Of a stretch of DNA of 64,000 bases, positions 3,402 to 62,775 are shown one piece after another (position 1 is the stretch's first letter; every line of letters starts with the position of its first letter). The stretch comes from an uncultured Verrucomicrobia subdivision 3 bacterium (lineage in GTDB: Bacteria; Verrucomicrobiota; Verrucomicrobiia; Limisphaerales; UBA11358): assembly GCA_903865745.1 (NCBI GenBank), contig CAIPKV010000059.1:69487-133486 (forward strand), written 5' to 3'. The notes under the pieces are model-generated. The model saw only the letters and a program-made list of their open reading frames with translations. It made no database searches and was not told where the DNA came from. The position numbers and the translations under genes are program-made.

Positions 3402-3531
3402 TTTGGATTTAAAATGAACGGTAGATGGCAAAATGCTGAAGTCCTAATTTAGGATAATTTTGTCCGGCAAGTTGAAAGAAACTCTTGAATAATGTGTTAG
3501 AATCGATGCAAAAGTATTTAATGCCACGCTT

Positions 3532-6500: not shown

Positions 6501-7779
6501 CAAGTTGGATTCCGAAAGCGTAAACTCAACCTTAAATCAAGCCCTCGGTTTTTTGATTGGCGGTCCTGGCAATTTTAATATTTCGGCCGCTTCCTTAGAT
6601 TTAGGTTTTTCCCCTGGAATACTTTCGTTTGGCTTCGGTGGACCTTACTCGAGCCTGCAATCCGTGACAGGCACCCTTGCCTCAGGCGGGGCTGGCGTCA
6701 ATGTGATGGTGGGGGGCGATATCAATTTGGTTACCTCGGCGATTGCTTCGCTGGATGGTGGCAATGTGAACGTCAACGCCGGCGGTCAGATGGTTCTTAG
6801 CGAGGGCACCTTTAACTTTGCCAACAGCACCTGCTATGGCATCTACACTACCGGGCATAGTGATGTCAACGTGACTGCCGGTGGCGACATCGATGTAGGG
6901 GGCGGATGCATCGGAACCTTTAACGGCGGCAATGTCTTTGTTGAATCCTTTACTGGGTCGGTAAACGCTGGCAGCGGGGAAAACCGGGCCCTCTACGTAG
7001 AAGGTGCGTATCTTGATGCGAATGGCCAGCCAGCCTTCACGGAATACGGAAACCTTACGGATATTGAGGCCTTGAAATTAGATCCAGCCCCGTATGGCAG
7101 CGGTATTTTAGCAGAGTATCCTACCAAAAAATATCAGACTCCGGGCGGCAGTGGCCTGCCGGGCAATATTACGGTGATTACGCCTAAAGGTAATATTGTT
7201 TCCAGCCGTGGTGGTATTTCCCAATTCGCCTTAGATGGCAGTATCGCCGGTGGCCCAATCGTAAATTTAATTGCTGGCACGAAGGGCGTTACTGCTACTC
7301 CAGATCAGGGTAACATTATTCTGGGCGAGGGCGGGGTAGTCGGCGGTACCGTCAATCTTACCGCTTCCGGCAACATTCAAGGTTTAATCGTTTCCCGACA
7401 GAACGCCAATGTTTCCGCCCAGCAAAACGTCGGCATCACGTTGCTGTCCGGCGGCGACGCCAATGTTTCATCGGGTGGTACCACCTCCGGCACCATTGTC
7501 GGCATTGGGGCAGTGAATGTCGCTGGCGGCGGCGGGGTGACGGCGTCATTGCTCGGCCAGAATGTTTCGGCGAATGGTGCGTCCCTCGGCAGCACCTTGG
7601 GCACCAGTTCCGGCGCCACGGCTTCCAGCCAGGCGGCCGCGCAACAATCGAGCCAGGCGAGCACACAGCAGGATACCACCGGCAATTCTGACGATGATAG
7701 TAAGAAGAAAAAGAAACCGGCCCTCCACAAGATAAGCCGGGTCACGGTCCTCCTCTCTTCAGCAGTGCCAGCGCACTAA
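3532..7779 (+). CDS. Two-partner-secretion exoprotein (TpsA, filamentous-haemagglutinin type)
   Basis: It has a signal peptide (..LLLLAGLVCPPQTRA) followed by a TPS/haemagglutination-activity domain: NPVGGTVAQGTASISSAGSQTTINQSSASAFINWQSFNIGAGETTTFNQP...GNINANGYVVLQNPNGFTIGG (NPNG motif). The body is more than 1000 aa of G/N/S/T-rich beta-helix-type repeats (GGNVNVTAGGD, GGNIDVTA). The tail is S/Q-rich and ends in KKKKKP. Confidence 0.85.
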   Translation: MKKLFKNQVYQIPGAALLLLAGLVCPPQTRANPVGGTVAQGTASISSAGSQTTINQSSASAFINWQSFNIGAGETTTFNQPSASSVTWNYISDPSASSINGNINANGYVVLQNPNGFTIGGAATISAHGLVMTTAATPALDLSSGGAWSFSAPPPTAKIINYGQINIAGGGSAYLIANDIENNGTISAPGGKIGLYAGKTVLVSMSPDGRGLSAQVTLPQGSVDNEGNLVADGGSIAAQAKMVNQNGLVQANSVQNVNGTIELVASDSVNLGAKSVISAQGDSQGSSAGGTVTIKSDTSFSDQAGSTINISGGVQGGNGGQVSICAPSMNSVQSVINGQATAGYLGGALSIDPANIWLASSSSDSSAPSGYTVIDVNSFSGLSLINLLADNNITLNTVWNLADQSATASLSLTAGNNITLNDGSAIKAGQDWNVSLTAGTAVTMKSEITAGNDGIYLDGSAYLQSQNGNLTLSTANEVIVQNGAIRTVGGGNIDVTAQYGDVNSGNNINGFSFGQRKAPYYIVNSGNLGGISTAAGGNVNITAGGDVISFLPIQSNYAAAKNDAGTGAFGSQPGNVTITAGGNVIGHYVLANGVGSITAGGNIGAPLTDPNPSDGFALSLISGSWSIKAPHGSIYVQEVRNPNGIFGERSANSSPNNYAGYHYFNYDPNASVQFNAGNSVEFTGNDAPDSPPSGGGLTIPILYPPSLSVITGSGDFIMDTSVILFSSANQNLNLNIGGNFMSGNGANAVSLEMSDSAAVRWIADSTTFGTSDHAASPPNVNNPNPVDITVGGNVDYIDLYTTHVTHMTVGGDLNNSGFAGENLHASDITTIKVNGKIYNSPIYTFASIGNNTIVSANPQQPGLWDSVFNLAVDPALVSQITSFDATKNNPQIAANGLAYYMKQAGYLLFPSGLGSSSQYGINPGFLYDPSSKQLAFRGNMSSVLSASQIAALEGGTFTVIVANTQGQPILDANGHIQVTTYKFAGQTAIAKLDSESVNSTLNQALGFLIGGPGNFNISAASLDLGFSPGILSFGFGGPYSSLQSVTGTLASGGAGVNVMVGGDINLVTSAIASLDGGNVNVNAGGQMVLSEGTFNFANSTCYGIYTTGHSDVNVTAGGDIDVGGGCIGTFNGGNVFVESFTGSVNAGSGENRALYVEGAYLDANGQPAFTEYGNLTDIEALKLDPAPYGSGILAEYPTKKYQTPGGSGLPGNITVITPKGNIVSSRGGISQFALDGSIAGGPIVNLIAGTKGVTATPDQGNIILGEGGVVGGTVNLTASGNIQGLIVSRQNANVSAQQNVGITLLSGGDANVSSGGTTSGTIVGIGAVNVAGGGGVTASLLGQNVSANGASLGSTLGTSSGATASSQAAAQQSSQASTQQDTTGNSDDDSKKKKKPALHKISRVTVLLSSAVPAH

Positions 7780-8719: not shown

Positions 8720-9120
8720 ACGACCTTTCGGGCAGATATATTTTATGCCAGGCGGAATGAAATTGACGATGCTTCCAGCCAAGTTGACTGCAAGCGCAGT
8801 GACTTGACCGATTAGCGCGGCCACAAAACCTGCCAGCCACGGCAGATTTACCGCCGTCGGCATGACGGCGACGACAGTCGGTGCCACGTTTACTACTCCC
8901 GGCATGGCGATGACTGTAGTCGGCATGACAAACCTTACAGTGTTCGTGACGAACCCTGTAGTCGGGATGACAAACCAAATCTTCGGCAAGGCAAACTCAA
9001 CAGTGAACGGTGGCAAACACTATCTTCGGGATGACAAACCTTACAGTGTTCGTGGCATCGCTTACAGTCGGCGTGGCAAACCCTGCAGTGTTTGTGGCCC
9101 CCAAACGGGCAAAAAGTGGC
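8720..9120 (-). repeat. Array 1: about 19 degenerate tandem units of 21 bp (two units are 22 bp)
   Basis: On the minus strand, units begin GCCAC/GTCAT at 9120, 9098, 9077, 9056, 9035, 9014, 8992, 8971, 8950, 8929, 8908, 8887 and 8866, and continue in register to about 8720. The consensus is GYCAYGMMGACTGTAAGGTTT. The units at 9056 and 8950 match at 20 of 21 positions. Confidence 0.85.
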
Positions 9121-9732
9121 TTTTTCGTCATAAAAACGCATAAAACCCTGAAATTTGCTCTTTTCTCGCTGGCAGATGGTCAAATAGCGACAGTTGCAGC
9201 CGGGGGAATTTAACGCCAAGGCGCGAAGACGCCAAGACGCGGGATGACAGGTGGAGCGAGACCGGCCAATTGGTTCTGGCGAATCCTGAAAAGATCAAAT
9301 TACCAGCCCAAGCTTGTCCGGCTTGCGCAGCCTTGGGTATGAACACTGCGATTCTTTCTACCTAGAATGAATTTTATGATTCAAACAAATCAATTCCGTA
9401 TTCTCTGTGGTTGCCACAGTAGATTTTAGTTTCAGCAATCGAAACCACTGCCAGCTAAGTGGAAAACCCCGATTCGACAACAAAATCTAAAAACGTTCAA
9501 AGTGAACTTTTGGTGACAAAGCCAGAAGTGGACCTTCATTTTAGAATGAAATATTTATAAAATACATAAATTCAATATTTTACAATATATTTTAACGCGT
9601 CATAAAATCGGCGCAGCATGTCCTAAGACATGAAGTTTTTGTTTCGCTAGTCTGTTAGAGTGTTCGGACTTGAAGCCCCACTTGGGTGGGTCAAGCTACG
9701 TAGAAAACCAAAAACCGGAACAAAAAATAAAA

Positions 9733-10434
9733 ATGAAAAATAAAATGTATCAAGCTGCGATACTCGCCGTCCTCGGACTGGCCAGTGTCTCGGCGGTGCA
9801 AGCGGCCTCGTACAATGGCGACTTGCTGATCGGCCTCACCACGCAGAGCGGCAACGACGTGGTCTATGACCTCGGCTCGTACTCCTCCCTCACCTACGGC
9901 GAAACCTGGGATTTGTCCTCGGCCATTTCCGCTGCCGGCCTCTCCCTCACGGGTTCCACGCTCTGGGGTATCATCGGTGCCCAGAACGTCAGCGGCACCC
10001 GTTACGCTTATATCACTGGCAATAGCGCCAACAGCATTCCCGGCATCACGGCTTGGAACAAAATTAATACCGGCGTGGCCACCATTTACAACTCTTTGAG
10101 CACGGCTGGCGCAGGCAATTACGGAACTCCTAGTTCGTCGCTTACCTACAGCTGGAATCAGCAAACGGCCCAAGGCGGTGCCGCCACCGGCACGGCGTTC
10201 TCAGCTGTTTCCGCTAATCCGAACTCGACGGGTTTCAATTACTTTCAAGCAATTTACCAGCAGGTTGCTGGTGGTTCACCGGCTACGGATGTTGGCGGTT
10301 TCAGCCTCTCCTCCGCTGGTGTCTTGACGTTCGAAACCGTTCCGGAGCCCGGCACCTACGCCATGATGGCCGTGGGCGGCGGTTTCCTGATGCTCGTTGG
10401 TCGCAATAAATTTGGTCGCAAACAACAATCCTAA
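9733..10434 (+). CDS. PEP-CTERM-anchored secreted protein
   Basis: It has a signal peptide (MKNKMYQAAILAVLGLASVSAVQA). The C-terminus reads VPEPGTYAMMAVGGGFLMLVGRNKFGRKQQS, which is a PEP motif, a TM helix and a basic tail. The track ORF starts at a TTG at 9670, and the ATG at 9733 is preferred. Confidence 0.8.
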   Translation: MKNKMYQAAILAVLGLASVSAVQAASYNGDLLIGLTTQSGNDVVYDLGSYSSLTYGETWDLSSAISAAGLSLTGSTLWGIIGAQNVSGTRYAYITGNSANSIPGITAWNKINTGVATIYNSLSTAGAGNYGTPSSSLTYSWNQQTAQGGAATGTAFSAVSANPNSTGFNYFQAIYQQVAGGSPATDVGGFSLSSAGVLTFETVPEPGTYAMMAVGGGFLMLVGRNKFGRKQQS

Positions 10435-15199: not shown

Positions 15200-15233
15200 C
15201 CCCCTGCAAAATTGATTTTTGCAGGGGGTTTTG
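15200..15233 (+). terminator. Rho-independent terminator after the 13997-15178 gene
   Basis: There is a perfect 12-bp stem, CCCCCTGCAAAA-ttgat-TTTTGCAGGGGG, followed by TTTTG. The track start of the next ORF (15212) lies inside this hairpin loop. Confidence 0.75.
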
Positions 15234-15427
15234 TTTATCTAACGCCTTGGTTAATCTGTCGAAGAACCCAAATGCGCCCATTAAAAAGAGTAATATTTGC
15301 GGTTTCGGCGGAATTGGCCGACGCGGTTAACCGGAGCTGTTATGTCGCAGGCTTGCTGGCTGATTGTCACACATTTGTAACCAAGCTGACATGGTTTTGT
15401 AGCGTGGTGTTTGCACCATTGCCCGCC

Positions 15428-17173
15428 ATGCGAAAGAACGAAACGAATCGCCAGGCTGCCTGGCTGACCAGCCTGCTGCTGATTCCGGCGGTTTTATGCG
15501 CAGATAACGCTTTGTGTGCTGATGCTGCCAGCGCCAACAATGCCAGCGATGCGAGCGATCTGCTGTTGAATTTATTTATTGAAAAGGGCTATGTCAGCAA
15601 AGCCGAGGCGGAAAAAGTCAAGGCTGAGGCGGAAAAGCGTCAGGCGGAACTAGATCAATACAAGGCTGAGGCGGAGCAGTACAAGACCGAGACCGAACAG
15701 CTCAAGGCGGATGTGGCCCAACTCAAAGCCAACGAGGAATCGTATCGGACTAATGCCGTACCCAGCTATTTGCCGGCCGCTAAATGGAAAATTAATCCTG
15801 GCGACAAATCTATCGAGCTGTTTGGCGATATCCGGATGCGTTACGAAGACCGCCAAATTCAAGACCCCAAAGGTAACAAGGTAACTTGGGATCGGCTGCG
15901 TTATTCCTTGCGCCTAGGTATGCGGGGAGAGGTCTTTGATGATGTTTATTACGGTTTCCGGTTGGAAACTTCCTCCAACCCGCGCTCGTCCTTCAACACG
16001 TTGGGTACGCCCACCGGCTCGTCGACTGCCCAGTATCCGAATCCGTTCACTAAAAACAATGAGACCTTGAATGTTGGTGAGGCCTATATTGGTTTAAAGT
16101 ATGGTGGTTGGCTGGATGTAGTGATGGGCAAGATGCCCAATCCGCTCTTTACCTCGACGATGGTCTGGAGTCCGGCCATAAGCCCCTCTGGTGCTGCCGA
16201 AACTCTGACCCACGCGGTGGGCGATATGGATTTATCCGTGACCTTGGGCCAGTTCATTTATCAGGCCACCAACCCCAACCAGTCATCGCAAGGGTTTTTG
16301 CCGCAGAACGCGAATAATTCCAGCCAGCCTTTTTTGATGGCCTTCCAAGGCAAGATCGACTATCACCTGACCAAAACGGTAAACTTCAAGGTGGCACCCG
16401 TTTTGTACTATTACACCCGTTATCAAAACGGCCAGAACCCGTCCGCAAATGGTGCTTATTACAGCCCGGACTTTTCGGGAACCTATGTGGGTCAGGGACA
16501 AAAAGTCGGGGTAAATGGTGTGCCGGCTTCCTATAACTTGGCCGGTAGCACTCCGGGCTTTGACGGCTATTATGCGAATCAAACCGGCATCAACGATCTG
16601 TTGGTTCTCGATATTCCTTTGGAAGTCAGCGTAAACCTTAAAAAAGTAAAAGTGCGTTTCTACGGAGATTACGCCCAGAACCTTCAGGGTAAAGAACGTG
16701 CCGATGCCGCGTACAATGCGGCTAATTCATTCTACTTCTCGGACAACGGTCCCGGCGCGGGGCAGATCAACCCGATTAATTCACCCCAAACGCATGATAT
16801 TCGCGCTTATCAGTTTGGCATTGGCGTGGGCAGCACCAATCTCATTTATGGGCCGTCACAAGGATTAGTTTACGGCAACGAATCAAAAAAGAACGCTTGG
16901 GAAGTGCGAACCTACTGGCAGCATATCGAACAATACTCACTGGATCCCAATCTGATTGACTCTGACTTCTTTAATGCCACCGAAAACGAACAGGGCGTCT
17001 ATGCCGCAATTGCCTATGGTTTGTTTGACAATGTGATAGCGACGGTGCGCTACGGCTATGCCCGGCGTATCAATGACCAACTGGGTACTGGTGGCAGCAG
17101 CGGCGATCTTCCGCAAATGAATCCGCTGAACTGCTACAGCATCTTTCAATTTGATCTAGGTGTCAGATTCTAA
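15428..17173 (+). CDS. Porin-like outer-membrane beta-barrel with N-terminal coiled coil
   Basis: The ATG at 15428 gives the signal peptide MRKNETNRQAAWLTSLLLIPAVLCA. It is followed by a KAEAE-rich coiled coil (AEAEKVKAEAEKRQAELDQYKAEAEQYKTETEQLKADVAQLK). The rest shows an alternating beta-strand pattern and ends FQFDLGVRF (terminal Phe). Confidence 0.65.
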   Translation: MRKNETNRQAAWLTSLLLIPAVLCADNALCADAASANNASDASDLLLNLFIEKGYVSKAEAEKVKAEAEKRQAELDQYKAEAEQYKTETEQLKADVAQLKANEESYRTNAVPSYLPAAKWKINPGDKSIELFGDIRMRYEDRQIQDPKGNKVTWDRLRYSLRLGMRGEVFDDVYYGFRLETSSNPRSSFNTLGTPTGSSTAQYPNPFTKNNETLNVGEAYIGLKYGGWLDVVMGKMPNPLFTSTMVWSPAISPSGAAETLTHAVGDMDLSVTLGQFIYQATNPNQSSQGFLPQNANNSSQPFLMAFQGKIDYHLTKTVNFKVAPVLYYYTRYQNGQNPSANGAYYSPDFSGTYVGQGQKVGVNGVPASYNLAGSTPGFDGYYANQTGINDLLVLDIPLEVSVNLKKVKVRFYGDYAQNLQGKERADAAYNAANSFYFSDNGPGAGQINPINSPQTHDIRAYQFGIGVGSTNLIYGPSQGLVYGNESKKNAWEVRTYWQHIEQYSLDPNLIDSDFFNATENEQGVYAAIAYGLFDNVIATVRYGYARRINDQLGTGGSSGDLPQMNPLNCYSIFQFDLGVRF

Positions 17174-32852: not shown

Positions 32853-32988
32853 AAAGATGGGCTATGAGTTGAGTGTTGGTGGGGCAGACTCACTATGCGA
32901 GACAATTGTATGAATACTTTCGGCGTGTCTGCGAACGGTGACCGCCCGGCTGTCTAGTTTTCCCGCCGTTTAACTCGGTTGGGAAAGA

Positions 32989-33008
32989 CTTTTAACAACT
33001 GTTAAAAG
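32989..33008. repeat. Perfect 9-bp inverted repeat, CTTTTAACA-ac-TGTTAAAAG
   Basis: I read this directly from the sequence. It lies between array 2 and the P2 start, about 137 bp upstream of it. A related TGTTAACA palindrome occupies the equivalent spacer of locus 1 (8683-8690). Confidence 0.5.
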
Positions 33009-33012
33009 CATT

Positions 33013-33285
33013 TCGTCACCTGACCCGCCGCGTAAGCCACTTGGTAAAGCGCCAGTGGATGTTAAAGAAACCCGCTTGCCACCGTTCACAGCCTCGCTGT
33101 CAATTGGCAAAACAAATCCGCCACCTGACATAAGCGCTTTGCCATGTGTCAAAACGACTGACTTAACTTTAAAAACTGCTTTGTCACCTGGCTTAATTAG
33201 GCTGCCACCTGTCAGAGCCGTCGTGGCAGGTGGCAAAATGATGGCGGAACTCATTGCCAAGCCTGTGTCAGGTGGCATCGTGGGG
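33013..33285 (+). repeat. Array 2: 13 degenerate tandem units of exactly 21 bp
   Basis: Units start at 33013 and recur every 21 bp. The core TTGCCACCTGWCA is clearest at 33076, 33118, 33139, 33181 and 33202. Inverted copies lie at 33223 and 33265. The sequence at 33076-33089 is identical to the complement of 9003-9016 in array 1. Confidence 0.8.
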
Positions 33286-33394
33286 TTTTATAAGGTGGTT
33301 GTTAGGAAATCTCTGTCTCCAACTAAAGTTTTACCCTCCGATTATCCAATATTTAGGGAGTTTTGCGGTATATCGGTTTCCGCCCTCGCCTATG

Positions 33395-34654
33395 TCAATT
33401 CGTACGGAAAAAGATCAGCCAGATAATCACCAGCACTGGCAGGAGGAAGGGCAGGGAGTATTTTAGGACATAATTGATGAATGACGGTACCGGCACACCG
33501 TTCTGTTCGGCAATGGCCTTGACCATGAAGTTCGGGCCATTGCCAATATAAGTGGCCGCCCCGAAAAACACGGAGGCGATGCTGATGGCCAGCAGATGAT
33601 GCGCATGGGTCACCAGCAGCGGCTGGATGTCTTCCGCCCCGGCCGTAGCGTGCAGCGAGGTCAGAAAGCCCAGATAAGTCGGTGCATTGTCCAGCGTGCT
33701 CGAAAGAACGCCGGTGCCCCAGTAGAAAATAGCCGGCGACGGATGCTGGCCGAGCAGGTTCGTGCTGTTTTGATTCAGCCAGTTCAAGGCCGGCATCATG
33801 GTGCTGAACAGTCCGGCAAAGAGAATGGCAACTTCCTGCACGGGATGGAAATCAAACTGGTTGGCCGCATGCACGGATTTCTTGGTCGTGAAATAAGAGC
33901 CCGCCGCCGCCGCGAGCATCAGGCCTTCGCGCAGGAACAGGGGTTTTTCCACAAACACCGCCACGAGGATGACCGCGAGAAAGAATAAGTTGGGCAGACC
34001 TTCGATTTTCCACGCTTCACCCGCTGGTTTATCCTCGCGCTGGGCGGGCAAGGTACGGAGGTAATGTCGTTGATCCACAAAATAGAAGATGGCGAGCAGC
34101 AGACCGCCGCCCAGCAGCCACAGCGGCCAGCAGTTTTGCGTCACCCACCAGAACGGGACACCTTGCAGATAGCCGAGGAACAGCGGCGGATCGCCAATGG
34201 GCGTGAGACAGCCGCCAATATTCGCCACGAGAAAAATAAAGAAGACGATGTGATGCGCCGCAATGCGGGATTTATTCAGTTGAATCCACGGCCGGACGAG
34301 CAGCATCGCCGCCCCGGTGGTGCCAAGGACGTTGGCAATAATGGCGCCGATGAGCAGGAAAACCACGTTGGTCAGCGGGGTGGCTTTGCCTTTGGTACCG
34401 ATGTGGATGCCGCCGGACACGACGAACAGCGAGCCGACGAGCGCGATGAAGCTGACGTATTCGTGAGCCGCTTCCGCGAGGCTATGGGTATCATGTAAAG
34501 CCAGCAGATAGTACCCCGCGGTGATGGCCCCGAGACCGAGCGCGACTTTGGCGTAATGCCGCAGCCACCAGCCCGGCGCAAAGATGGGCGTAGCCGCCAT
34601 TGCGCCGAGTAATAGCACGAAGGGCAGCAGCGTCAGGAATTCAGCCATCGTCAT
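33395..34654 (-). CDS. Polytopic ion transporter (ArsB/NhaD-permease or sodium:proton-antiporter-like superfamily)
   Basis: It is about 420 aa and has at least 10 hydrophobic helices. The assignment rests on overall resemblance only. The start is either the ATG at 34654 or the one at 34648. Confidence 0.5.
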   Translation of the reverse strand: MTMAEFLTLLPFVLLLGAMAATPIFAPGWWLRHYAKVALGLGAITAGYYLLALHDTHSLAEAAHEYVSFIALVGSLFVVSGGIHIGTKGKATPLTNVVFLLIGAIIANVLGTTGAAMLLVRPWIQLNKSRIAAHHIVFFIFLVANIGGCLTPIGDPPLFLGYLQGVPFWWVTQNCWPLWLLGGGLLLAIFYFVDQRHYLRTLPAQREDKPAGEAWKIEGLPNLFFLAVILVAVFVEKPLFLREGLMLAAAAGSYFTTKKSVHAANQFDFHPVQEVAILFAGLFSTMMPALNWLNQNSTNLLGQHPSPAIFYWGTGVLSSTLDNAPTYLGFLTSLHATAGAEDIQPLLVTHAHHLLAISIASVFFGAATYIGNGPNFMVKAIAEQNGVPVPSFINYVLKYSLPFLLPVLVIIWLIFFRTN

Positions 34655-34714
34655 GGCGCTGAATTGTGGGGAGGTTCTGGCGGTGGTCAAACCCAAACGT
34701 AAGCGGACGGTGAC

Positions 34715-37700
34715 TTGACGGCGTGCTGGTTCGCTGCGAAGGTTTTGCGCTTGCCGCAGGATTTACCAGCAAAGGCGACGAGCACCTTGTTCGCTGACCT
34801 CGCTAAGACTCCCGCTGTGCAGACGCTCGCACGGCGCTTGGAGGTGGGCGGAGCGCTGTCGGTTGCCGGCATCGCGTCTACGGCCCAGCCGTTCTTCGCT
34901 GCATTGGTGCAAGCGCTGTTTCCGCAAAGGCCGGTTGTCATCGTCACGGAAAACCTGAAGGCGCAGGAAAGCTTTCAGCAGGATTTGGAGACGTGGCTGG
35001 CGGTTGAGTCCAATGGCCAAAGTTCAAATGCCAAAGCCGAGCCGTCCCAAATTCCAACTGCCAACTCCCAACTGCTCTTCTATCCGGCGTGGGAGATTTT
35101 GCCGCATGAAGAGAAATTGCCGCATGCCGACGTCATCAGCGACCGTCTGCAAACGCTCGTGGCACTTTCAGACAACTCAAAACTTAAGACTCAAAATCCA
35201 AAACTGCTCGTGGTGACGAGCGTCATTGCGCTGCTGCAAAAAACCTTTCCGCCGGGCGAGATTCAGGAACGGACGCGTAACTTCAAACGCGGTGACCGGA
35301 TTGCGCCGTTGGATTTGATTGAGTGGCTGGAAGCACAGGGCTACGAACCGGAGGCGCAGGTTTCGCAGAAGGGTGAAATTGCGTTGCGCGGTGGCATAGT
35401 GGACATATTCCCACCGACCAACCCGTGGCCAGTACGATTGGAGTTTTTTGGGGATGAACTGGAATCGTTGCGCGAGTTTGACCCGCTCACACAAGTTTCG
35501 CGGGGAGAGATTTCCATGGTGGTTTTGCCGCCCGCGGGCGAGTTGGGAATCTTAAAGCAAAGGCAGCATGCAAAGCCGTTAGCTTCATTGCTCGACCATT
35601 TGCCGCGTGAAACGGTTTTTCTGCTTTGTGAGCCGGAAGCCATCGCGGTTCAAGCGGATGCTTACGAACAGCAGGTTCCGAAGGCTGATTCCTTCTTCAT
35701 TTCGTGGCCGGATTTCCTGGTGGAACTATATCGGCGAAGATTTACGGCGGTTGAATTGGTTGAGACCGTAGATAGTGGCGAAGCTAATCCGCTCTTTGAA
35801 AACCTCGACGCCTTTCGGCCATTGGCTGAACGCGCTCCGGAGCCGCAGGTGGCCGAAGCCCTGCGCCGCGAATTCTTTCAGCAGCTTCACCGCTGGCTGC
35901 GGCAGGATTACGCTGTCCACGTCTTTTGCAATAATGACGGCGAGCGCCAGCGGTTCGAGGAAATCTGGAAGGAACATGGTTTTAGCGCGGAAGAAAAATT
36001 AGCTGTTCAAGTCGGCTCGCTGGCTCGCGGCTTTATTTGTGCCGAGGCAAAGCTGGTGGTGGTCACGGATGCGGAAATCTTTGGGCGTTATAAAATCCAG
36101 CGGCCGCGTCGTCAGAAAAGTTCTCATGCTCAGGCGGCGCGCTCGGCGCTCGATATTGATTTCACGGATTTGGAGGAAGGCGATTTGGTGGTGCATTTGC
36201 AGCACGGCATCGGGCGTTATCGCGGTTTAAAAAAGATGCCGGCGGGCAACAGCCGGCATGTTTTGGAGGGTAATCCGCAAACAGCCGATTCAATCGAATG
36301 TCTGGTCATTGAATACGCGCCGGCGAACGATGGTGAAGCAGCGCCCAAACTTTATGTGCCCGTCAGTGAGGCGCATCTCGTCAGCAAATACGTCGGCGCG
36401 GGTAAGGTGAATCCACCGCTTAATCAACTGGGCGGCACGCGTTGGGCAAAGGCGAAAGAGCAGACTGAAAAGGCGGTGCGCGACATTGCGGCGGAAATGC
36501 TGCGTATTCAGGCGGTGCGGGAAACTCAGGCTGGTCATGCGTGCAAGCCGGATACGCAATGGCAGCGGGAATTTGAAAGCGCTTTCATCTACGAGGAAAC
36601 GGCGGACCAGGTCACTGCCATTGCGGCGACCAAAGCGGACCAGGAGCGGGCCAAGCCGATGGATCGTTTGATTTGCGGTGACGTGGGTTTTGGTAAAACG
36701 GAAGTGGCCATCCGGGCTGCTTTCAAATGCGTGATGGACGGAAAACAAGTGGCGATTCTCGTCCCGACGACGGTGCTGGCGCAGCAGCATTATAATAATT
36801 TTCGCGATCGCATGGCGGATTACCCGATACGCGTCGAACTGCTTTCGCGTTTTCGCACGAGGCGGGAGCAGGATCTGGTGGTGAAAAATCTCGCGGCGGG
36901 GGCGGTGGATATTTTGATTGGCACGCATCGCATTGTGCAGGAAGACATCGCGTTCAAAGATTTAGGGCTGGTGGTGATTGACGAGGAGCAACGGTTTGGG
37001 GTTGTGCACAAAGAGCGGTTCAAGCGGCTGCGGACGATGGTGGATGTGCTGACCTTGAGCGCCACGCCGATTCCGCGCACGCTCTATCTTGCACTCACCG
37101 GCGCGCGCGACATGAGCACCATTCAAACGCCGCCGCATGATCGGCTGCCGGTCGAGACGATTGCGACGCCTTATGACGAGCGTACGATTCGCGATGCCAT
37201 CCAGCGCGAAATGAATCGTGGCGGGCAGACCTTTTTCCTGCACAACCGCGTGACGACGATTGAGACGATGCGCGAAAAATTACAGGCGCTCGTTCCGGAT
37301 GCGCGCATTGTGGTGGGTCATGGCCAGATGCATGCGGATGATTTAGAAGAGGTGATGACGAAGTTTGTCAACGGCGATGCGGATGTTCTCCTATCCACCA
37401 CTATCATCGAGAGCGGTCTCGATATTCCGAATGCAAATACCATTATCATTGACCGGGCGGATCGATTTGGTTTGAGCGAGTTGTATCAGTTGCGCGGGCG
37501 GGTCGGGCGCTACAAGCATCAGGCCTTTGCTTATCTGTTGCTGCCGCGCCACGCACGCTTGCTTACCGATGTACGCAAACGCATTAGTGCGATGAAGCAA
37601 TACGCGTCGCTCGGTAGCGGATTTAAAATCGCGATGCGTGATTTGGAGATTCGCGGTGCGGGGAATCTTTTGGGTGCGGAACAAAGTGGTCACATTACTG

Positions 37701-44568: not shown

Positions 44569-45864
44569 TTATTTCCGCTGCTCCAGCGGGATGTAAGGAT
44601 TAATCGTCTTGCCCGTGTAAATCTGGCGGGGCCGGTAAATGCGGCTCTTCGGCTCCTCCATGATTTCCTTATAATTGGCAATCCAGCCGGGCATACGGCC
44701 AATGGCAAAGATGACCGTGAACATCTCCAGCGGAATACCGATGGCGCGCATGATGATGCCGCTATAGAAATCCACGTTCGGATAAAGTTTCCGCTCGACG
44801 AAATAAGGATCCTTCAGCGCGGCCTCTTCCAGCTTCTTCGCAATGTCCAGTAACGGGTCAGTGATGTGCAATTTGGACAGGACCTCGTCACAGGCTTGTT
44901 TAATAATCGTGGCGCGCGGATCGTAGTTTTTATAAACGCGGTGGCCGAAGCCCATGAGTTTCTTGCCACTGTTCTTGTCCTTGGCGGCTGTAATAAATTT
45001 TGAACCGTCGTCGCCGGAATTGTGGATGTCCGCGAGCATTTCGAGCACCGCCTGGTTCGCGCCGCCGTGCAGCGGGCCCCAGAGTGCGCACACGCCGGCC
45101 GCGCAGCTCGCAAATAGATTTGCCTGGCTGGACGCCACCATGCGGACGGTTGAGGTGGAACAGTTCTGCTCGTGATCCGCGTGCAACAGAAAAATCAAGT
45201 CCAGCGCCTTAACCACTTCCGGCTTGATCTCAAAATCCTCATACGGCATCGAGAACATCATGTGCAGGAAGTTCGCCGTGTATTTGTAGTTTTGCTTCGG
45301 ATAAATCAGCGGCAACCCCTTGGACTTGCGATACGAATACGCCGCAATCGTTCGCACCTGCGAAATCAGCTTCGCCACATAGATATCAAATTGATTGTTC
45401 TTGCCCCACTTCCAGTTCATCAAGCCCTCGTCAAAGCAGCTCGCAGCGTTAATCATCGAGGACAAGATGGCCATCGGATGGGCGCCCGACGGGAAACCCT
45501 CGAAGTGATACTTCATGTCCTCGTGCAGGTACTGGTGGTCGGTCAGCAGGTCGGAGAAGGTCTTCAACTGCGTGCGGTTCGGCAGCGCGCCATAGATGAT
45601 CAGGTACGCCGTCTCGATAAAATTGGATTTCTCGGCCATCTCCTCGATGGGGATGCCGCGGTAGCGCAGGATGCCCTGGTCGCCGTCGATGAACGTCACA
45701 TTACTGGCGCACGAGCCGGTATTGCCATAGCCATCATCGATGGTGATGTAGCCGGTCGTCGCGCGCAGCGCCGAAACGTCCACGGCCTTTTCATTCTCGC
45801 TGCCCGTCAGGGTGGGCAGGGTGTAAACTTTTCCGTCCAGTTCTAGTTTGGCTTGATTGCTCAT
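44569..45864 (-). CDS. gltA: Citrate synthase
   Basis: This 431-aa ORF has [15 protein letters not shown] and [14 protein letters not shown], the classic type II citrate synthase motifs. Confidence 0.93.
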
Positions 45865-45976
45865 GGCTCCTTTAATTCATTGAAGGGTTAAAACTCAATT
45901 GCTTAAAAATTTGCCGTCGAAAAGAAAAATTGCAAGCCGTGAAAAGCAAAATCGCACGATTTTCCACGGCTGCCAA

Positions 45977-46135
45977 TTATCCGTCAGCGTTCTCGCCATG
46001 CCCGGCACAGCCACATCCGGCTAATTCAATGCAATCTTTGCAAAGCGTCTGCCCCGCCATTTCCACCACCTCAAAGCTCCCGCACCGCTCGCACGTGGCG
46101 TTTTCCGGGTCCTGACCTTCCGTAGTCGAGCTCAC
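45977..46135 (-). CDS. Candidate 52-aa zinc-ribbon micro-protein overlapping the trpE stop
   Basis: My own translation from the GTG at 46135 is VSSTTEGQDPENATCERCGSFEVVEMAGQTLCKDCIELAGCGCAGHGENADG. It contains CxxC-x15-CxxC. GTGA overlaps the trpE stop codon. It is below the 60-aa cutoff of the ORF track. Confidence 0.35.
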   Translation of the reverse strand: MSSTTEGQDPENATCERCGSFEVVEMAGQTLCKDCIELAGCGCAGHGENADG

Positions 46136-47646
46136 GCCTTGCCAAACCCCTCCGCCAACGCGATGGCCTTCCGCATTGCCATGGATTTGTTTACCGTCTC
46201 CTGATATTCGCCTTCCGGCGTCGAATCGTTCACCCAGCCGCCGCCGGCTTGGACGAAGGCCCGGCCGTCCTTGATGAGCGCCGTGCGAATGGTAATGCAG
46301 GTGTCCAGATTACCGTTGAAGGAAAAATAGCCCACGCAGCCCGCGTAAGTGCCGCGTGTGGTCTGTTCGAATTCAGAGATGATCTGCATCGCGCGGATTT
46401 TCGGCGCGCCGCTGACCGTGCCGGCCGGAAACGTCGCGCGCATCAAATCATAATTCGACTTATCGGCGGATAAATTCCCTTCCACCTGCGACACGATATG
46501 CATGACATGGCTGTAACGCTCCACGATCATCAAATCCTTCACCGACACGCTGCCGAAATCGCAGACGCGGCCGATATCGTTGCGCGCCAGATCCACGAGC
46601 ATCACGTGCTCGGCGCGTTCCTTCGGGTCGGCGAGCAGTTCCTTTTCCAACGCCTTATCCTCATCGTCCGTCTTGCCGCGACGACGCGTGCCGGCGATGG
46701 GGCGAATCTCCACCTTGCCCTCTTCGCAGCGAACGTGCAGTTCCGGCGACGCCCCGACCAGCGCGAAACCATCCAGCTCCAGCAGAAACATGTACGGCGA
46801 AGGATTGATGCTGCGCACTGCGCGATAAATATCCACCGGCGACGCCTTGACCGGCGCGGAGAACCGTTGCGAACCAACCACCTGTATGATGTCGCCCGCG
46901 CGAATGTATTTCTTCGCCGCCTCGACATTCGCAAAAAACTTCTCCGACGACTGGTTGGATTCAAAGGAAATCGGCGGCACCTCCGCTGGCAACGTCACCG
47001 GCTGATGTTCACTCGGCTGTTCCAGCAGCGAGACGATGCGGTCAATCTCGCTCGTCGCATTTTCGTAGGCCTCCGCGGGCGATTCAGCGTCCTCCAAGAC
47101 CGCGTTGACCAGAATGGTAATCGTCTGCTGCGCGCGGTCGAAGGTGAGCAATTGGTCGGCGATAAGGAAATACATCACCGGCGTCTTCAATTCATCCACC
47201 GGCGGACGCGGCACGGACGGTTCCACGTCATGGATGAATTCGTAGCCGATGAAGCCGATGGCACCCCCCGTGAAGCGCGGCAGACCAGGCGTCGTCACCG
47301 CGCGGAATTTCTTCATCACGCGCTCGACCACTTCCAAGCCGTCCTTCACGTCGCGACCGACCACGAAACTTTCCGTCACGCGCCCGTTCTCGAAGATTTG
47401 GACTTGGCTGCCGTCCTGTCGGATGACGGCGCGCGGGTTGCAGCCCACGAACGAGTAGCGCCCCACATGTTCGCCGCCTTCGACCGACTCGAACAGGAAC
47501 GATTCGCCCTGACCCCGGATTTTGCGATAAGCCGAGAGCGGCGTTTCGAGGTCGGCCAGGATGCGACGCGCGACGGGAATGAGATTTCCCTGCGTCGTGA
47601 GCTTCAAAAATTCAGCAGCAGTCGGCGAATACATAGAAATAAGCAT
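46132..47646 (-). CDS. trpE: Anthranilate synthase component I
   Basis: This 504-aa ORF has the chorismate-binding-enzyme motifs ..GTYAGCVGYFSFNGNLDTCITIRT.. and LFESVEGGE. Confidence 0.93.
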   Translation of the reverse strand: MLISMYSPTAAEFLKLTTQGNLIPVARRILADLETPLSAYRKIRGQGESFLFESVEGGEHVGRYSFVGCNPRAVIRQDGSQVQIFENGRVTESFVVGRDVKDGLEVVERVMKKFRAVTTPGLPRFTGGAIGFIGYEFIHDVEPSVPRPPVDELKTPVMYFLIADQLLTFDRAQQTITILVNAVLEDAESPAEAYENATSEIDRIVSLLEQPSEHQPVTLPAEVPPISFESNQSSEKFFANVEAAKKYIRAGDIIQVVGSQRFSAPVKASPVDIYRAVRSINPSPYMFLLELDGFALVGASPELHVRCEEGKVEIRPIAGTRRRGKTDDEDKALEKELLADPKERAEHVMLVDLARNDIGRVCDFGSVSVKDLMIVERYSHVMHIVSQVEGNLSADKSNYDLMRATFPAGTVSGAPKIRAMQIISEFEQTTRGTYAGCVGYFSFNGNLDTCITIRTALIKDGRAFVQAGGGWVNDSTPEGEYQETVNKSMAMRKAIALAEGFGKA

Positions 47647-47795
47647 GAAGAAATTCGCCTAAAGAAACAACCAGTTTAGTAGGTCGCCACTGAAAAGTCC
47701 GGCGCGGCTACCGGAACCGGCGCCGCCCCAATCGCCCATAGATTTGCCATTGCCGCGTCGAAAAACCCATAAATGAGTCCGTTTCACCCTCAAGC

Positions 47796-48026
47796 GCGTA
47801 TTCGTTTGCTACAAACGCATATGCAAATAGACCATCCGCATATGCAAACGTGGCATCCGCATATGCAACTGCGGTATTCGCGTATGCAAATGGGGCAAGT
47901 GCATATGCCATTGGGGCATTCGCATACGCAGATGCTCCAATTGCATATGCGGATGCGACAATCGCATAGGCGATTGCCATAAACAAACACGCGGATGTTC
48001 CAAAGGAACACGCAGTTGCCGTCCCC
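47796..48026. repeat. Array 3: 11 tandem units of exactly 21 bp carrying a GCATATGC palindrome
   Basis: Core starts lie at 47817, 47838, 47859, 47901 and 47943 (perfect GCATATGC). One-mismatch cores lie at 47880, 47922 and 47964. More degenerate units lie at 47796, 47985 and 48006. Confidence 0.9.
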
Positions 48027-48091
48027 GCGTGGGCCAGCCGGTATTCCATATCTGTGTTTCATCTGGGTCCATCTGTGGCTAAAATCCCCGC

Positions 48092-49168
48092 GTGCATCTG
48101 GCCCATTTGCGACTTCGTGACTTCCGCAATTACGCGCGGTTGGACGTGGATTTTGCGCCCGGCTTTCACCTGCTGCTCGGCGACAACGCCCAGGGCAAGA
48201 CCAACATTCTCGAAGCCGTTTATCTCATGGCCACCCTGCGCTCCTTCCGCGGCGTCGGCGGTGCCCAAATGATCCGGCACGGTGCGAAAGGCTACTTCGT
48301 CGGCGGCAATGTCGTGGGGCAGGGCGACCACGAGATCAAAATGTATTGGGCATTGCGCGAGCGGAAGCTCACGCTCGACGGCCAGCCCGTGAAGAAGCTG
48401 GCGGATTATCTGGGTGTGCTCCGCACGGTGGTGTTTTGCACCGAAGATTTGCAACTCATCAAAGGCACGGCGCGCGCGCGGCGGCGGTTCATCGATTTGC
48501 TCCTGGCGCAGACGCAGCCCAGCTATTTGCCATTGCTCCAGCGCTACATGCACACCGTCCGCGCCCGCAATGCCTTGCTCAAGCAGCGTGCGGTAGATGA
48601 AGCCGCGCTCGAAAGTTTTTCCACCGAACTCGTGAAGCTGGGTAATGAAATTATCCGTGCCCGCAGCGCCTTGGTGCCGAAGTTTTCACCACTCGCGCGG
48701 CTCGCTTATCGGCGCATCTCAAAGGATGCGGAGGAACTGCGCATCGAATATTCGCCGAGCGTGAAGCAGGATTTCGCCGTGGAACTCGCGCAGTCGCGTT
48801 CGCGTGAACGGACATTTCGCGCCACGCTGGTCGGCCCGCACCGCGATGACTTACAATTGTTGCAGAACGAGAAGTCCGCCGCGCAGTTCGGCAGCGAAGG
48901 CCAGAAGCGCACGCTCGCCATTGCCTTGAAGATGGCGCAGGCAGAATTTCTCGCCGGCATCCACGGCTCGCCGCCGATTCTGCTGATCGATGACGTAATG
49001 GGTGAACTGGATGTGAAGCGGCGCTGCGGCTTCCTGCCCTTGCTGGAATCGGCGCGCAAGAGCAGCGGCCAGGTCTTTATGACCTGTACTGAAGAAAACT
49101 GGCCGAGCGAACTCAACAAAGATTTACAGCGCTGGCAGGTGAAGACGGGAAGTTTGCAAAAGCTTTAG
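48092..49168 (+). CDS. recF: DNA replication and repair protein RecF
   Basis: The sequence is (GTG)HLAHLRLRDFRNYARLDVDFAPGFHLLLGDNAQGKTNILEAV (Walker A) plus the signature FGSEGQKRTLAIALKMA and LLIDDVMGELD. Confidence 0.9.
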   Translation: MHLAHLRLRDFRNYARLDVDFAPGFHLLLGDNAQGKTNILEAVYLMATLRSFRGVGGAQMIRHGAKGYFVGGNVVGQGDHEIKMYWALRERKLTLDGQPVKKLADYLGVLRTVVFCTEDLQLIKGTARARRRFIDLLLAQTQPSYLPLLQRYMHTVRARNALLKQRAVDEAALESFSTELVKLGNEIIRARSALVPKFSPLARLAYRRISKDAEELRIEYSPSVKQDFAVELAQSRSRERTFRATLVGPHRDDLQLLQNEKSAAQFGSEGQKRTLAIALKMAQAEFLAGIHGSPPILLIDDVMGELDVKRRCGFLPLLESARKSSGQVFMTCTEENWPSELNKDLQRWQVKTGSLQKL

Positions 49169-59380: not shown

Positions 59381-60514
59381 TTAATCCACGTTGGGATACG
59401 AGCCGAGGATTTTTACGAAGTTGCAGTGCTTCCCGAGGTGTTGGATGGCTTTCGCCACCTTCGCGTCCTGATAATGTCCGGTGCAGTCAATAAAGAAGAA
59501 ATATTCCCACGCCTTGCGCTTACTCGGGCGGGATTCAATCTTCGTCATGTTGATCTTGAATTTGCGAAATGCGGCAATGGCCTCGTGCAGCGCGCCCGCT
59601 TTGTCCGCCACGCTCAACATTAGGCTGGTGCGGTCATCGCCCGTTGGCGGGCTGCATTGGCGGCCTAGAACGAGAAAACGTGTAACATTAGCGGCATTGT
59701 CCTGAATATTTTTCCCTAAAATCGCCAGCTTGTATTTTTCTGCGGCAAGTTCGGTCGTAATAGCACCAGTGGCGATTTCGGGACCCTTTTTTTCAAGTTT
59801 GACGCCCACATTTGCTTTTTCTGTTTGCCATGATTTAACTGGTTTGCTCGCAATTGCCGCTGACACCGCATTAGAAGTCGTCTCTACAATCACCGCATTA
59901 GGATAATGTTGACGCAACCAATTCCGGCATTGGCCAAAGGTTTGAGGGTGGGCATAAATAGTCGTAATTTTGTCTTTTGGAAAACGACTCGCAAAACAAT
60001 GTGATACCGGTAAAACAATTTGTGAAACTACTTTCAAATCACTATCCACAAACATGTCTAGCGTGTGTGTGACGACACCCTCGGTTGAATTCTCTACCGG
60101 AACCACACCGTAATCAGCATCCTTTTTAGAGACTTCAATGAAAACATCGCCAATTGTTTTTTGTGATGCGTACTGAAGGCTTGAGCCAAAGCGTTTCATT
60201 GCCGCCTGATGTGTAAAGGTTGTCTCTGGTCCGAGATACGCGATGGTCATCGTCTTTTCCAGCGCAAGTGCGCTGGACATGATTTCGCGGTAAATCGCGC
60301 GGAGTTGCTCGTTCGTGATCGGGCCGCTGTTGTGCGAGCAGACGCGGTCGAACACCGTGCGTTCGCGGTGGGGCGCGTAGATTTCCTCACCGGCCGCGAG
60401 CTTGATTTCGCCGATAGCGAGAACGTGGCGGGTGCGCGCGTTGAGCAGTTGGACGATCTGCGTGTCCAGCTTGTCAATCGCCTGACGATGTTCGGAAAGG
60501 CTCATGCCAAGCAA
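59381..60514 (-). CDS. pheA: Bifunctional chorismate mutase / prephenate dehydratase
   Basis: It has an N-terminal CM helix region (IDKLDTQIVQLLNARTRHVLAIGEIK), a PDT domain (IAYLGPETTFTHQAA...) and a C-terminal ACT domain (ESRPSK motif). Confidence 0.88.
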   Translation of the reverse strand: MLGMSLSEHRQAIDKLDTQIVQLLNARTRHVLAIGEIKLAAGEEIYAPHRERTVFDRVCSHNSGPITNEQLRAIYREIMSSALALEKTMTIAYLGPETTFTHQAAMKRFGSSLQYASQKTIGDVFIEVSKKDADYGVVPVENSTEGVVTHTLDMFVDSDLKVVSQIVLPVSHCFASRFPKDKITTIYAHPQTFGQCRNWLRQHYPNAVIVETTSNAVSAAIASKPVKSWQTEKANVGVKLEKKGPEIATGAITTELAAEKYKLAILGKNIQDNAANVTRFLVLGRQCSPPTGDDRTSLMLSVADKAGALHEAIAAFRKFKINMTKIESRPSKRKAWEYFFFIDCTGHYQDAKVAKAIQHLGKHCNFVKILGSYPNVD

Positions 60515-60634
60515 GCATGAAGAATGAAGAATGAAGAATCAAACCTTGTTTCACCGTTGTTTGCTGATCCTCATCGCCTTGAGATGGGGGGTGACGATTG
60601 CGCGGGGGAGCAGCGGTTTTTCTCAGAAAACAAG

Positions 60635-61902: not shown

Positions 61903-62044
61903 TTAAATAGCTTGCGGTCTCAAATAAATGGCAGAGCATCGGAGCATTCCCCGCTGAATGGCGGGATGTAGTAGGCTGTAATCAAATGTTGGTTTTCGAC
62001 AACGACTCCCTGCCTGCGGGTCTTTGCCGAAGGAGCACAACATT

Positions 62045-62422
62045 ATGAGCTACATCGACCCTGATCAATTGCATGGCGCGCTGGATGGTTTGATCACCTT
62101 CACCGGCAAAAACGCCGCCGCCATCACCGCCGGTGACTTGGATCCCGTCGGTGTTACCACCAAGCTGACGGCCATCCGCGACGGACTCAAAGGCACGAAA
62201 GACATCCGTGACGGAATCAGAACCGAACTGACCACCGCGCAGCAGGCTTTTGCCGGAGCGGCCGCGACTAACTACACCGCCTTTAGCAGCCTGGTGGACG
62301 CCATCTCCGGTGCGTTGGGCAAGACCACGCCGCTCGCCCACCAGGCGTTGAACTACCGGATGCACCTCAACATCCCCGCGCAACATCGTACGCCCGCGCC
62401 CGTTCCGCCGGTTACTGTCTAA
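62045..62422 (+). CDS. Small helical hypothetical protein (P3, possible N-domain-only relative of P1/P2)
   Basis: The ATG at 62045 is preceded by AAGGAG with an 8-nt spacing. The sequence is MSYIDPDQLHGALDGLITFTGKNAAAITAGDLDPVGVTTKLTAIRDGL... A strong terminator follows. Confidence 0.6.
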   Translation: MSYIDPDQLHGALDGLITFTGKNAAAITAGDLDPVGVTTKLTAIRDGLKGTKDIRDGIRTELTTAQQAFAGAAATNYTAFSSLVDAISGALGKTTPLAHQALNYRMHLNIPAQHRTPAPVPPVTV

Positions 62423-62465
62423 GAATGGGACGATTCTTCGCAAGTCATTCAACTTAAGGTAGCAA

Positions 62466-62500
62466 CTGAGCCGCTTATTCAAAAAGCGGCTCAGCTTTTT
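62466..62500 (+). terminator. Rho-independent terminator of the P3 gene
   Basis: There is a perfect 11-bp stem, CTGAGCCGCTT-attcaaa-AAGCGGCTCAG, followed by CTTTTT. Its 3' arm is also the first unit of array 4. Confidence 0.8.
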
Positions 62501-62775
62501 GTAAAAGCGGCGTCGCTTTCGGGAAAAGCGGGTCCGCCTACGGCGACGGCGGGTCGGCTTTTTGGATAAGTGGCTCCGCTTTTCCCGTAGGCGGGACCAG
62601 AGTTGCCGACGGCGGGTTCGCCTTGGCCGACGGCGACGCGGCTTTTGGCAAAGGCGGGTCAGCCTTTTGAATAAGCGGCTCCGCCTTTCCCGACGGCGAC
62701 GTCGCTTTTTGCATAAGCGGGTCCGCCGGTGGCGACGGCGAACCCGCTTTCGCTGCCGGCGAGGCTGGATTGAAG
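62484..62775 (+). repeat. Array 4: 14 tandem units of exactly 21 bp (42-bp super-period) built from small GC hairpin/palindrome units
   Basis: The GCGG/GCGA core lies at 62486, 62507, 62528, 62549, 62570, 62591, 62612, 62633, 62654, 62675, 62696, 62717, 62738 and 62759. All spacings are 21 bp. Confidence 0.9.

Follow-up and report, generated by a model that had tools for sequence, protein, structure and literature searches.

In the 64,000-nucleotide stretch analysed here (contig CAIPKV010000059.1 of assembly GCA_903865745.1, from an uncultured Verrucomicrobia subdivision 3 bacterium; hereafter the window), a series of about 13 repeat units of 21 bp, array 2, occupies positions 33013-33285. 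It lies in a 540-bp gap between the gene of a CitMHS_2 transporter (33395-34696, minus strand) and P2 (32232-32852, minus strand), which encodes a protein of 206 aa composed of a helical bundle at the N-terminus and an FN3-like domain at the C-terminus. What such a repeat does in front of a small gene is the question raised by this locus. A reading made from the sequence alone had linked the array to an FN3 gene, which we specify as P2, and to a second array, array 1, which lies likewise upstream of the paralogue P1. We propose, with a probability of roughly one half, that array 2 is an oversized enhancer or operator platform, that is, non-coding regulatory DNA made of helically phased dyad sites to which a protein is predicted to bind. 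Array 2 is one member of a conserved class of arrays that precedes essentially every gene of the P family.

Array 2 is a diverged series of dyads in a 21-bp register

The register of 13 units that starts at 33013 and recurs every 21 bp, as proposed by the sequence-only reading, is borne out by autocorrelation and by column information. Autocorrelation within 33013-33285 is highest at lags 42 (0.47), 63 (0.44) and 21 (0.40), all other lags staying at or below 0.32 and the window-wide mean being 0.25. The 13 units carry a summed column information of 10.2 bits, compared to 2.6 ± 1.5 bits in random 13 x 21 blocks of the window, only 0.7% of which attain this value. A length of 21 bp corresponds to two turns of the double helix. 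The conserved columns read TG.CA..TG.CA, and TGNCA is about nine-fold enriched (51 per kb in array 2, 5.5 per kb in the window), CAGGTG/CACCTG about forty-fold (22 versus 0.5 per kb). The consensus is gTGtCACcTGgCAaAAC on the plus strand and TTTTGNCA-NN-TGNCAAA on the strand of P2. A core can be recognised in about 10 of the 13 units, those at 33055, 33160 and 33244 being degenerate. Since Tandem Repeats Finder does not report array 2 even at score 30, we regard it as a diverged array.

The units are imperfect palindromes (dyad symmetry z = 5.1, a value equalled in none of 200 column shuffles), and the two strands of a unit are told apart by the 2-bp centre, GG or CC, alone. This alters the view of the orientation flip that had been described inside the array: both orientations of the asymmetric centre are indeed present, but due to the dyad symmetry the assignment of a unit to one strand is nearly arbitrary. 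For the same reason, the argument drawn from the direction of the motif strand relative to the FN3 gene carries little weight. The 9-bp inverted repeat TGCCACCTG / CAGGTGGCA noted at the switch was recovered by the repeat search. It lies between two adjacent units (33203-33235, TGCCACCTGTCA / TGGCAGGTGGCA) and forms 12-nt arms at 33203-33214 and 33224-33235 that are 92% complementary.

The extent of array 2 has to be corrected, as it runs on toward P2 into a promoter-proximal dyad at 32983-33014. This dyad of 32 bp, with 15-nt arms and a 2-nt spacer, stands in the register of array 2 and is its best-formed unit; the core CTTTTAACA-AC-TGTTAAAAG is perfect over 9+2+9 nt at 32989-33008. A scan for sigma-70 promoters around array 2 found nothing.

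Array 2 is not a gene

A protein-coding function has to be considered, because the period is divisible by three and two mutually antisense open reading frames (ORFs) are open over array 2. Both exist as had been described: one of 102 aa on the minus strand (32970-33278), and one of 123 aa on the plus strand (33055-33426) that overlaps the end of the CitMHS_2 transporter gene. One of them could encode a small protein of heptad repeats. However, the 102-aa ORF is open only because the repeat unit contains no stop codons. A search of 1.84 billion representative proteins gave no homologue of it but a single spurious low-complexity match, and scans of Pfam, NCBIfam and PHROGs gave none; the 123-aa ORF has no NCBIfam match. 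Gene callers place no gene in the array 2 gap in any of six assemblies. Orthologous arrays have unit sequences that are unrelated at the amino-acid level, and related arrays show super-periods of 41, 62 and 83 bp, averaging 20.5-20.75 bp per unit or about two helical turns. These periods, together with a 1-nt slip in array 1, destroy any reading frame. The doubt already voiced about a co-oriented upstream ORF was therefore right, since neither ORF is conserved and related arrays disrupt the frame. Array 2 is non-coding DNA, both ORFs are judged to be no genes, and the coding explanation is extremely improbable and effectively refuted by the homologue search, the gene calls and the frame-breaking periods.

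Arrays of the same class precede the genes of the P family

From an alignment of P2 homologues we collected 108 homologous loci, 35 from genomes and 73 from metagenomes. The top autocorrelation lag belongs to the 21/42/63 family in 81 of 82 distinct P upstream regions, compared to 47 of 389 control segments, which were 700-nt segments of the same loci. A value of at least 0.45 is reached by 79 of these upstream regions and by 14 of the 389 controls, and the single exceptional region has a top lag of 7 bp. The concern that P-family genes elsewhere might never carry such arrays is thereby removed. Tandem Repeats Finder places the arrays between -100 and -700 from the ATG; their length has a median of 231 bp. 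Among their hosts are Chthoniobacterales, Limisphaerales, Pedosphaera-like Verrucomicrobia, two Acidobacteria and Chryseolinea. The homologous loci show no synteny with the window, with no CitMHS, KdtA, Mfd or RpoD nearby, and their neighbours are variable, unrelated housekeeping genes. Therefore, the array travels with the P gene as a self-contained module. In the literature searched, we found no published description of such arrays.

Dyad symmetry exceeds z = 2 in 62 and z = 3 in 40 of 84 arrays (column-shuffle control). The unit sequences are wholly different between lineages, and many unit consensuses have the form TTT-core-NN-core'-AAA, for example TTTCCCAA-TA-TTGGGAAA, TTGCGA-TA-TCGCAA and the consensus of array 2 on the P2 strand. 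A very regular array is found in L029 (Acidobacteria gp5), where 7.5 copies with 91% matches and no dyad symmetry extend from -384 to -227 relative to the start of P. The same locus has a strong GC hairpin, CCGCCGGC-GCTGT-GCCGGCGG, about 60 nt before the ATG.

P2 has a weak Pfam fn3 match and 49 homologue clusters of about 206 aa. Its AlphaFold model (mean pLDDT 78) comprises an N-terminal helical bundle and a C-terminal beta-sandwich. Fold searches against the PDB and viral structures returned generic FN3 domains only, the matches covering only FN3, and no signal peptide is evident in the N-terminal sequence. As array and gene always occur together and have no conserved neighbours, P itself might bind the units, as an autoregulator or array-binding protein that co-evolves with its sites. 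The motif class follows the P subfamilies and the N-terminal helical bundle is conserved, as such a role might require. However, family and fold searches detected no DNA-binding family or fold for P, and an FN3 domain is unusual in a DNA-binding protein. Moreover, P2 orthologues of similar identity (62-70%) have quite different unit cores, and the window also contains arrays without a P gene. We consider binding by P quite unlikely.

The layout also resembles plasmid-type iterons or centromere-like partition sites bound by a Rep or ParR-type protein. Known arrays of this kind (R6K or P1 iterons, R1 parC, F sopC) are tandem repeats at roughly one- or two-turn spacing, some with inverted repeats, which lie beside a small gene and which a small DNA-binding protein coats cooperatively. 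Array 2 recalls the iteron/rep and parC/parR arrangements in its repeat length and spacing of about 21 bp and in the small gene next to it. In contrast to these, array 2 stands in a chromosomal housekeeping context (kdtA, rpoD, mfd and the CitMHS_2 transporter gene), and a scan of neighbouring ORFs gave no Rep, ParA, ParM or TubZ. Several arrays occur per chromosome, P has no winged-helix or ribbon-helix-helix fold, and a sigma-54 promoter accompanies the arrays in relatives, all of which makes a replication or partition site very improbable.

A sigma-54 promoter lies between array and gene in most related loci

In the upstream regions of close orthologues, TGGCAT-N5-AAGCT or TGGCAT-N5-ATGCT occurs about 80 nt before the ATG. 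A scan of the gene strand with the weighted pattern TGGCACG-N4-TTGCW and a threshold of 18 of 20 detected a sigma-54 -24/-12 promoter (TGGCA-N7-TGCT) between array and gene in 75 of 88 distinct loci, where 0.044 per locus are expected. These loci represent 34 independent sequence clusters, and weaker sites with correctly spaced GG and GC occur in three further loci. The promoter has a median position of -81 nt from the ATG, and the median distance from the array end to the -24 element is 81 bp. The dyad sites thus lie about 80-200 bp or more upstream of the promoter, as in sigma-54 enhancers; the activator sites of sigma-54 promoters are normally located at about such upstream distances. Two loci, L018 and L105, have TGGCAyG-N4-(T/G)TTCT at the usual promoter position, with a canonical -24 element and TC replacing GC at -12. 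This change may be a tolerated variant or a sign of promoter decay, like that seen in the window.

The position of the promoter also bears on a role of the array as RNA. If a long 5' leader or a small RNA were transcribed from it, the array could supply tandem short hairpins that serve as a protein sponge or attenuator. Each unit allows a short hairpin, both strands fold better than shuffled sequences (z = -2.5 and -3.6), and in the P1-like subgroup with the motif PVTWNG the array ends about 50-70 nt from the ATG with no promoter found in between. However, 75 of 88 loci have their promoter between array and gene, so that the array is not part of the P transcript. The folding excess is not strand-specific, the dyad mismatches show no wobble signature (G:T 549, A:C 422, other 1443), many dyads have 2-nt centres, and no Rfam match at the gathering threshold or at E ≤ 1 and no tRNA was found. 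A structured RNA is therefore improbable.

The P1-like loci L030, L033, L034, L035 and L037 have an N-terminal extension of about 40 aa (M..PVTWNG.DA.G.PLRW..PGL.WNG). It is an in-frame fusion in some loci; since a stop codon separates it in others (L034 and L035), the extension may be a small upstream ORF.

A putative enhancer platform upstream of P2

For the enhancer or operator platform we propose the following scheme. About 14 imperfect dyad sites (TTTTGNCA-NN-TGNCAAA), one every 21 bp from where the upstream transporter gene ends to the P2 promoter, would allow many dimers of a sequence-specific DNA-binding protein to align on one face of the helix. Most plausibly this protein would be a bacterial enhancer-binding protein or a partner regulator, and the bound proteins would build oligomers that either switch the sigma-54 promoter on, and thus activate P2, or keep it silent. 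At P2, the sequence AGACACGCCGAAAGTA (32915-32930, minus strand), which starts 78 nt before the ATG, is a mutated remnant of a sigma-54 promoter; its aligned counterpart in the closest orthologue, L042, whose protein is 75% identical, is TGGCACGACACAAGCT. Since array 2 is diverged and the hallmark dinucleotides of its promoter are mutated, this copy may be weakened or now be driven differently.

A number of observations weigh against this scheme. Relative to L042, the P2 promoter has changed from GG to GA at -24 and from GC to GT at -12. The best sigma-54-like site upstream of P1 (8789-8804, minus strand; AGTCAC-TGCGC-TTGCA), which starts 207 nt before the ATG, has the right spacing and an intact TTGCA at -12, with GT and not GG at -24, and reaches 15.5 of 20, short of the threshold of 18 applied to the family. 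No canonical sigma-54 promoter stands beside any of the four arrays of the window, and none was found in the PVTWNG subgroup, whose arrays end so close to the gene. The organism of the window may have lost sigma-54 control of P1 and P2, use a variant promoter or express the two genes weakly. The 64-kb window contains no gene for an enhancer-binding protein with the GAFTGA motif, and among about 110 related loci such a gene is near only one, L029, about 2 kb upstream on the opposite strand. The helical phase of the dyads relative to the -24 element gave R = 0.55 (p = 2e-7) on 51 loci, but this apparent signal arises because the loci are related: with 23 independent clusters R falls to 0.39 (p = 0.03), and the ATG as a control performs as well. 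Dyads are missing from array 1 and from the arrays of L029, L008 and L107, and within the window arrays of the same class adjoin unrelated genes (recF/trpE and cca). To our knowledge, 10-24 sites are far beyond any characterised bacterial enhancer. Finally, the arrays have a substitution rate similar to third codon positions, and high- and low-information unit columns, when pooled, do not differ significantly (70 of 534 versus 86 of 534 positions changed).

Insertions and deletions are scarce. Orthologous arrays show no gain or loss of units, with 0-3 gap openings across more than 1 kb, and 16 of 17 pairs at 70-99% identity have no unit-length difference; the six assemblies of the window strain are identical. 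Gap positions amount to about 0.3% in orthologous arrays and about 2.7% in adjacent promoter-proximal DNA, which makes them about nine-fold rarer in the arrays over 11 pairs, not all of them independent. The apparent target of selection is the array as a whole, in its presence, length and phase, and not the individual site. Such constraint is expected for many redundant sites, but is also compatible with a purely architectural role.

A neutral or selfish minisatellite without function, which slippage or unequal exchange had produced within a long intergenic spacer, would agree with the substitution rate and with motif columns that lack clear extra conservation, and an array upstream of recF is indeed present in some close relatives and missing in others. 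This explanation is disfavoured by the arrays that precede 81 of 82 distinct P genes in different phyla and without synteny, by their consistent placement relative to the sigma-54 promoter, and by the constant copy number and rare indels of orthologues; we rate it as hardly probable. Contingency loci, such as H. influenzae hmw with 7-bp tandem repeats upstream, resemble the arrays in having a tandem repeat before the promoter of a single-gene unit that possibly encodes a surface protein. However, the hypervariable unit number of a phase-variable repeat is not seen between orthologues, the number of repeats being stable between related strains, and the units of the arrays are long (21 bp), diverged and dyad-symmetric. 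A contingency repeat was therefore rejected.

Alternatively, the array could be architectural DNA without a dedicated regulator, in which the 21-bp repeat adds up bends coherently into a curved or wrapped stretch, or offers a nucleoid-associated protein a preferred site, and thereby helps or insulates the promoter. In agreement with this, the period is kept at 20.5-21 bp, including the arrays with super-periods, indels are strongly avoided as the unit sequence drifts near-neutrally, and this sequence is completely lineage-specific. The arrays beside unrelated genes of the window and the T-tract and A-tract ends of many unit types would also fit. However, a nucleosome-like code with 10.5-bp alternation of A/T and G/C is absent, the second harmonic being significant in 2 of 84 arrays. 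Furthermore, the dyads in most arrays and the cores that recur in unrelated metagenomes look like recognition sites, which curvature does not need. We regard a purely architectural role as possible but rather unlikely.

The enhancer platform can be compared to known regulatory regions. The usual picture of a bacterial enhancer has two to five activator sites, whereas the arrays comprise 8-24 units over 160-400 bp. The arrays further differ from sigma-54 enhancers in that the unit sequence is not conserved across lineages and in that GG and GC of the promoter are mutated in the window. What both have in common, with NorR as the example, is a -24/-12 promoter preceded by dyad sites that are spaced by about two helical turns. 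At E. coli norV, three dyad enhancer sites on a 66-bp fragment are needed, and a 21-bp oligonucleotide holds one site; the NorR sites are thought to scaffold oligomer assembly, and the DNA may wrap around the ring (PMC2831303).

Proteobacterial PEP-CTERM genes form single-gene operons with a large intergenic region, an activator motif and a sigma-54 promoter about 71 nt from the start codon (Haft et al. 2006, PMC1569441). Like the P modules, these PEP-CTERM/PrsR regions are large intergenic stretches before single-gene operons that encode small non-enzymatic proteins; the activator motif, which may be repeated, comes before the sigma-54 promoter, and the start codon follows after about 71 nt (about 81 nt in P loci). 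In both types a genome contains several paralogues, and every paralogue has a copy of the region to itself. In contrast, P proteins have no PEP-CTERM domain (no match for P1 or P2), a long 21-bp array takes the place of one or a few 17-nt motifs (PrsR motif 1), and the hosts are Verrucomicrobia and Acidobacteria, in which Haft et al. did not detect the proteobacterial motif (PMC1569441).

If the enhancer reading is true, the arrays are up to several times larger than usual bacterial enhancers. More tentatively, and with our doubts prevailing, array and P gene might together represent an undescribed homotypic super-enhancer, in which a protein filament or several rings of activator, nucleated by 10-24 phased dyads along one side of the helix, would gate a sigma-54 promoter. 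The sites would drift and re-homogenise as long as the two-turn phase is kept, and would occasionally be recruited to other genes. The arrays are widespread in uncultured Verrucomicrobia and Acidobacteria of soil, peat and lakes and keep period and phase as their sequence turns over; they could throw light on the evolution of homotypic site clusters and on the way in which DNA-bound activators form oligomers. They also offer a handle on the uncharacterised P family, whose proteins combine a helical domain with FN3 and which has several paralogues in a genome; the family is apparently tightly regulated by sigma-54. For automated annotation, the arrays are a source of spurious ORFs and false N-terminal extensions, such as the 102- and 123-aa ORFs over array 2, a 529-aa ORF at 61982-63571 and a RecF of 514 aa.

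Array 1 and the shared 14-mer

Array 1 (8860-9100) consists of 21-bp units, about 11 in number, on which a super-period of 42/63 bp is superimposed. It contains mainly direct repeats with the core RTGRCAAAC and a 1-nt register slip near 9054, has an autocorrelation of 0.52 and is reported by Tandem Repeats Finder at 8920-9040; by the column-shuffle control it has no dyad symmetry (z = -0.8). P1 (7980-8597, minus strand; 205 aa) is a distant full-length paralogue of P2. Aligned to the P2 family profile it reaches an hhalign probability of 94% (E = 1e-7, 195 columns) and an hmmsearch E value of 5e-12, and BLASTP between the two proteins finds similarity confined to a C-terminal motif. P1 and P2 are the sole members of the P family within the window, and both reading frames are intact. 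This full-length homology supports the view of arrays 1 and 2 as related cis elements that go with two FN3 paralogues.

The 14-mer TTGCCACCGTTCAC that had been reported for both arrays is exact. It occurs at 33076-33089 (plus strand) in array 2 and at 9003-9016 (minus strand) in array 1, and a DNA search of the window found these two copies, on opposite strands, and none elsewhere. This identity had been taken to suggest constraint or exchange at the DNA level. The identity is real, but it is only modestly above expectation for two TGRCA-rich arrays. It is the longest match of either array of the window to about 80 other arrays, where 8-10 nt are usual and 13 nt are the maximum, and other pairs of paralogue arrays within one genome have only 8-10 nt in common. 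Since 13-nt matches exist to arrays of other metagenomes, the 14-nt identity is no proof of DNA exchange.

Short cores are common to more distant arrays. Arrays 1 and 2 share the half-site RTGRCAAA, and array 2 shares a CAGGTG core with its closest orthologues L043, L050 and L053 (TCAGGTGA). The core of array 1 is similar to GGACAAA(A)C of P1-like loci in other genomes, GGACAAA being recurrent in this group, and TTTCCCAA-NN-TTGGGAAA is found repeatedly across many unrelated metagenomes. The common cores fit recognition by related DNA-binding proteins and do not require recent DNA exchange.

Contigs identical to the window come from freshwater-lake metagenomes, and the homologues are labelled Verrucomicrobiae. 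Directly before P1, a two-partner secretion pair spans 972-7779, consisting of a ShlB/FhaC-type transporter with a POTRA_2 domain (972-3401, plus strand) and an exoprotein of 1415 aa with a TPS domain (3532-7779, plus strand). Beyond array 1, about 570 bp from it and divergent from P1, lies a gene for a PEP-CTERM protein (9670-10434, plus strand).

Other repeats in the window

Array 3 (47816-47985) has at least 8 well-preserved 21-bp units, CGCATATGCAAACnnGGCATC, with the dyad GCATATGC (z = 6.0). It occupies the divergent gap between trpE (46132-47646, minus strand) and recF (48092-49168, plus strand), and neither a P gene nor a sigma-54-like site adjoins it. A 113-aa ORF over this array (47708-48049, minus strand) is spurious. 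The RecF homologue P0144 (90% identical, 514 aa) is annotated with an N-terminal extension of 156 aa that is G/A-rich and appears heptad-like by eye (GFAIGGT GGAALAG GATVGLG ...); this extension would be a translated 21-bp array upstream of recF in that relative. One relative with a 92% identical RecF lacks the array. As the presence of the recF array differs among relatives, the arrays without a P gene look sporadic, whereas those linked to P are nearly universal.

Array 4 (62465-62760) comprises about 14 units of 21 bp, AAAAGCGGnnCCGCTTTTnnn (z = 4.5), with no P gene adjoining. It lies between a 132-aa ORF (62024-62422, plus strand), which was considered as a P family member and proved unrelated, and a plus-strand gene that starts near 62819, about 60 nt downstream of the array. 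The product of the latter gene, which runs past the window end, begins with MTAASSRAIARDIVATLQQAGFAAFWVGGCVRDFLLGREPQDFDIATD, which we take to be the signature of a CCA-adding enzyme or poly(A) polymerase. Directly before the ATG of this cca-like gene stand four tandem CGTAAAT heptamers (62793-62820). The 529-aa ORF at 61982-63571 (minus strand) is arginine-rich over array 4 and otherwise antisense to the cca-like gene; it has no family matches and is almost certainly spurious.

A 21-bp periodicity at 15584-15730 is a different phenomenon, as it stems from coiled-coil-like heptads (KAEAEKVKA etc.) encoded within a 653-aa ORF (15212-17173, plus strand). Further short heptamer repeats are CCAACTG at 35054-35075 and AAGAATG at 60513-60539. 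In the gap downstream of trpE, a 22-bp repeat, GCCGTCGAAAAGAAAAATCGCAA, is present in two copies (45913-45956), and a sigma-54-like site, TTGGCAAGGCGTGAGCT (46129-46144, minus strand), lies about 265 nt upstream of a gene of 431 aa (44569-45864, minus strand).

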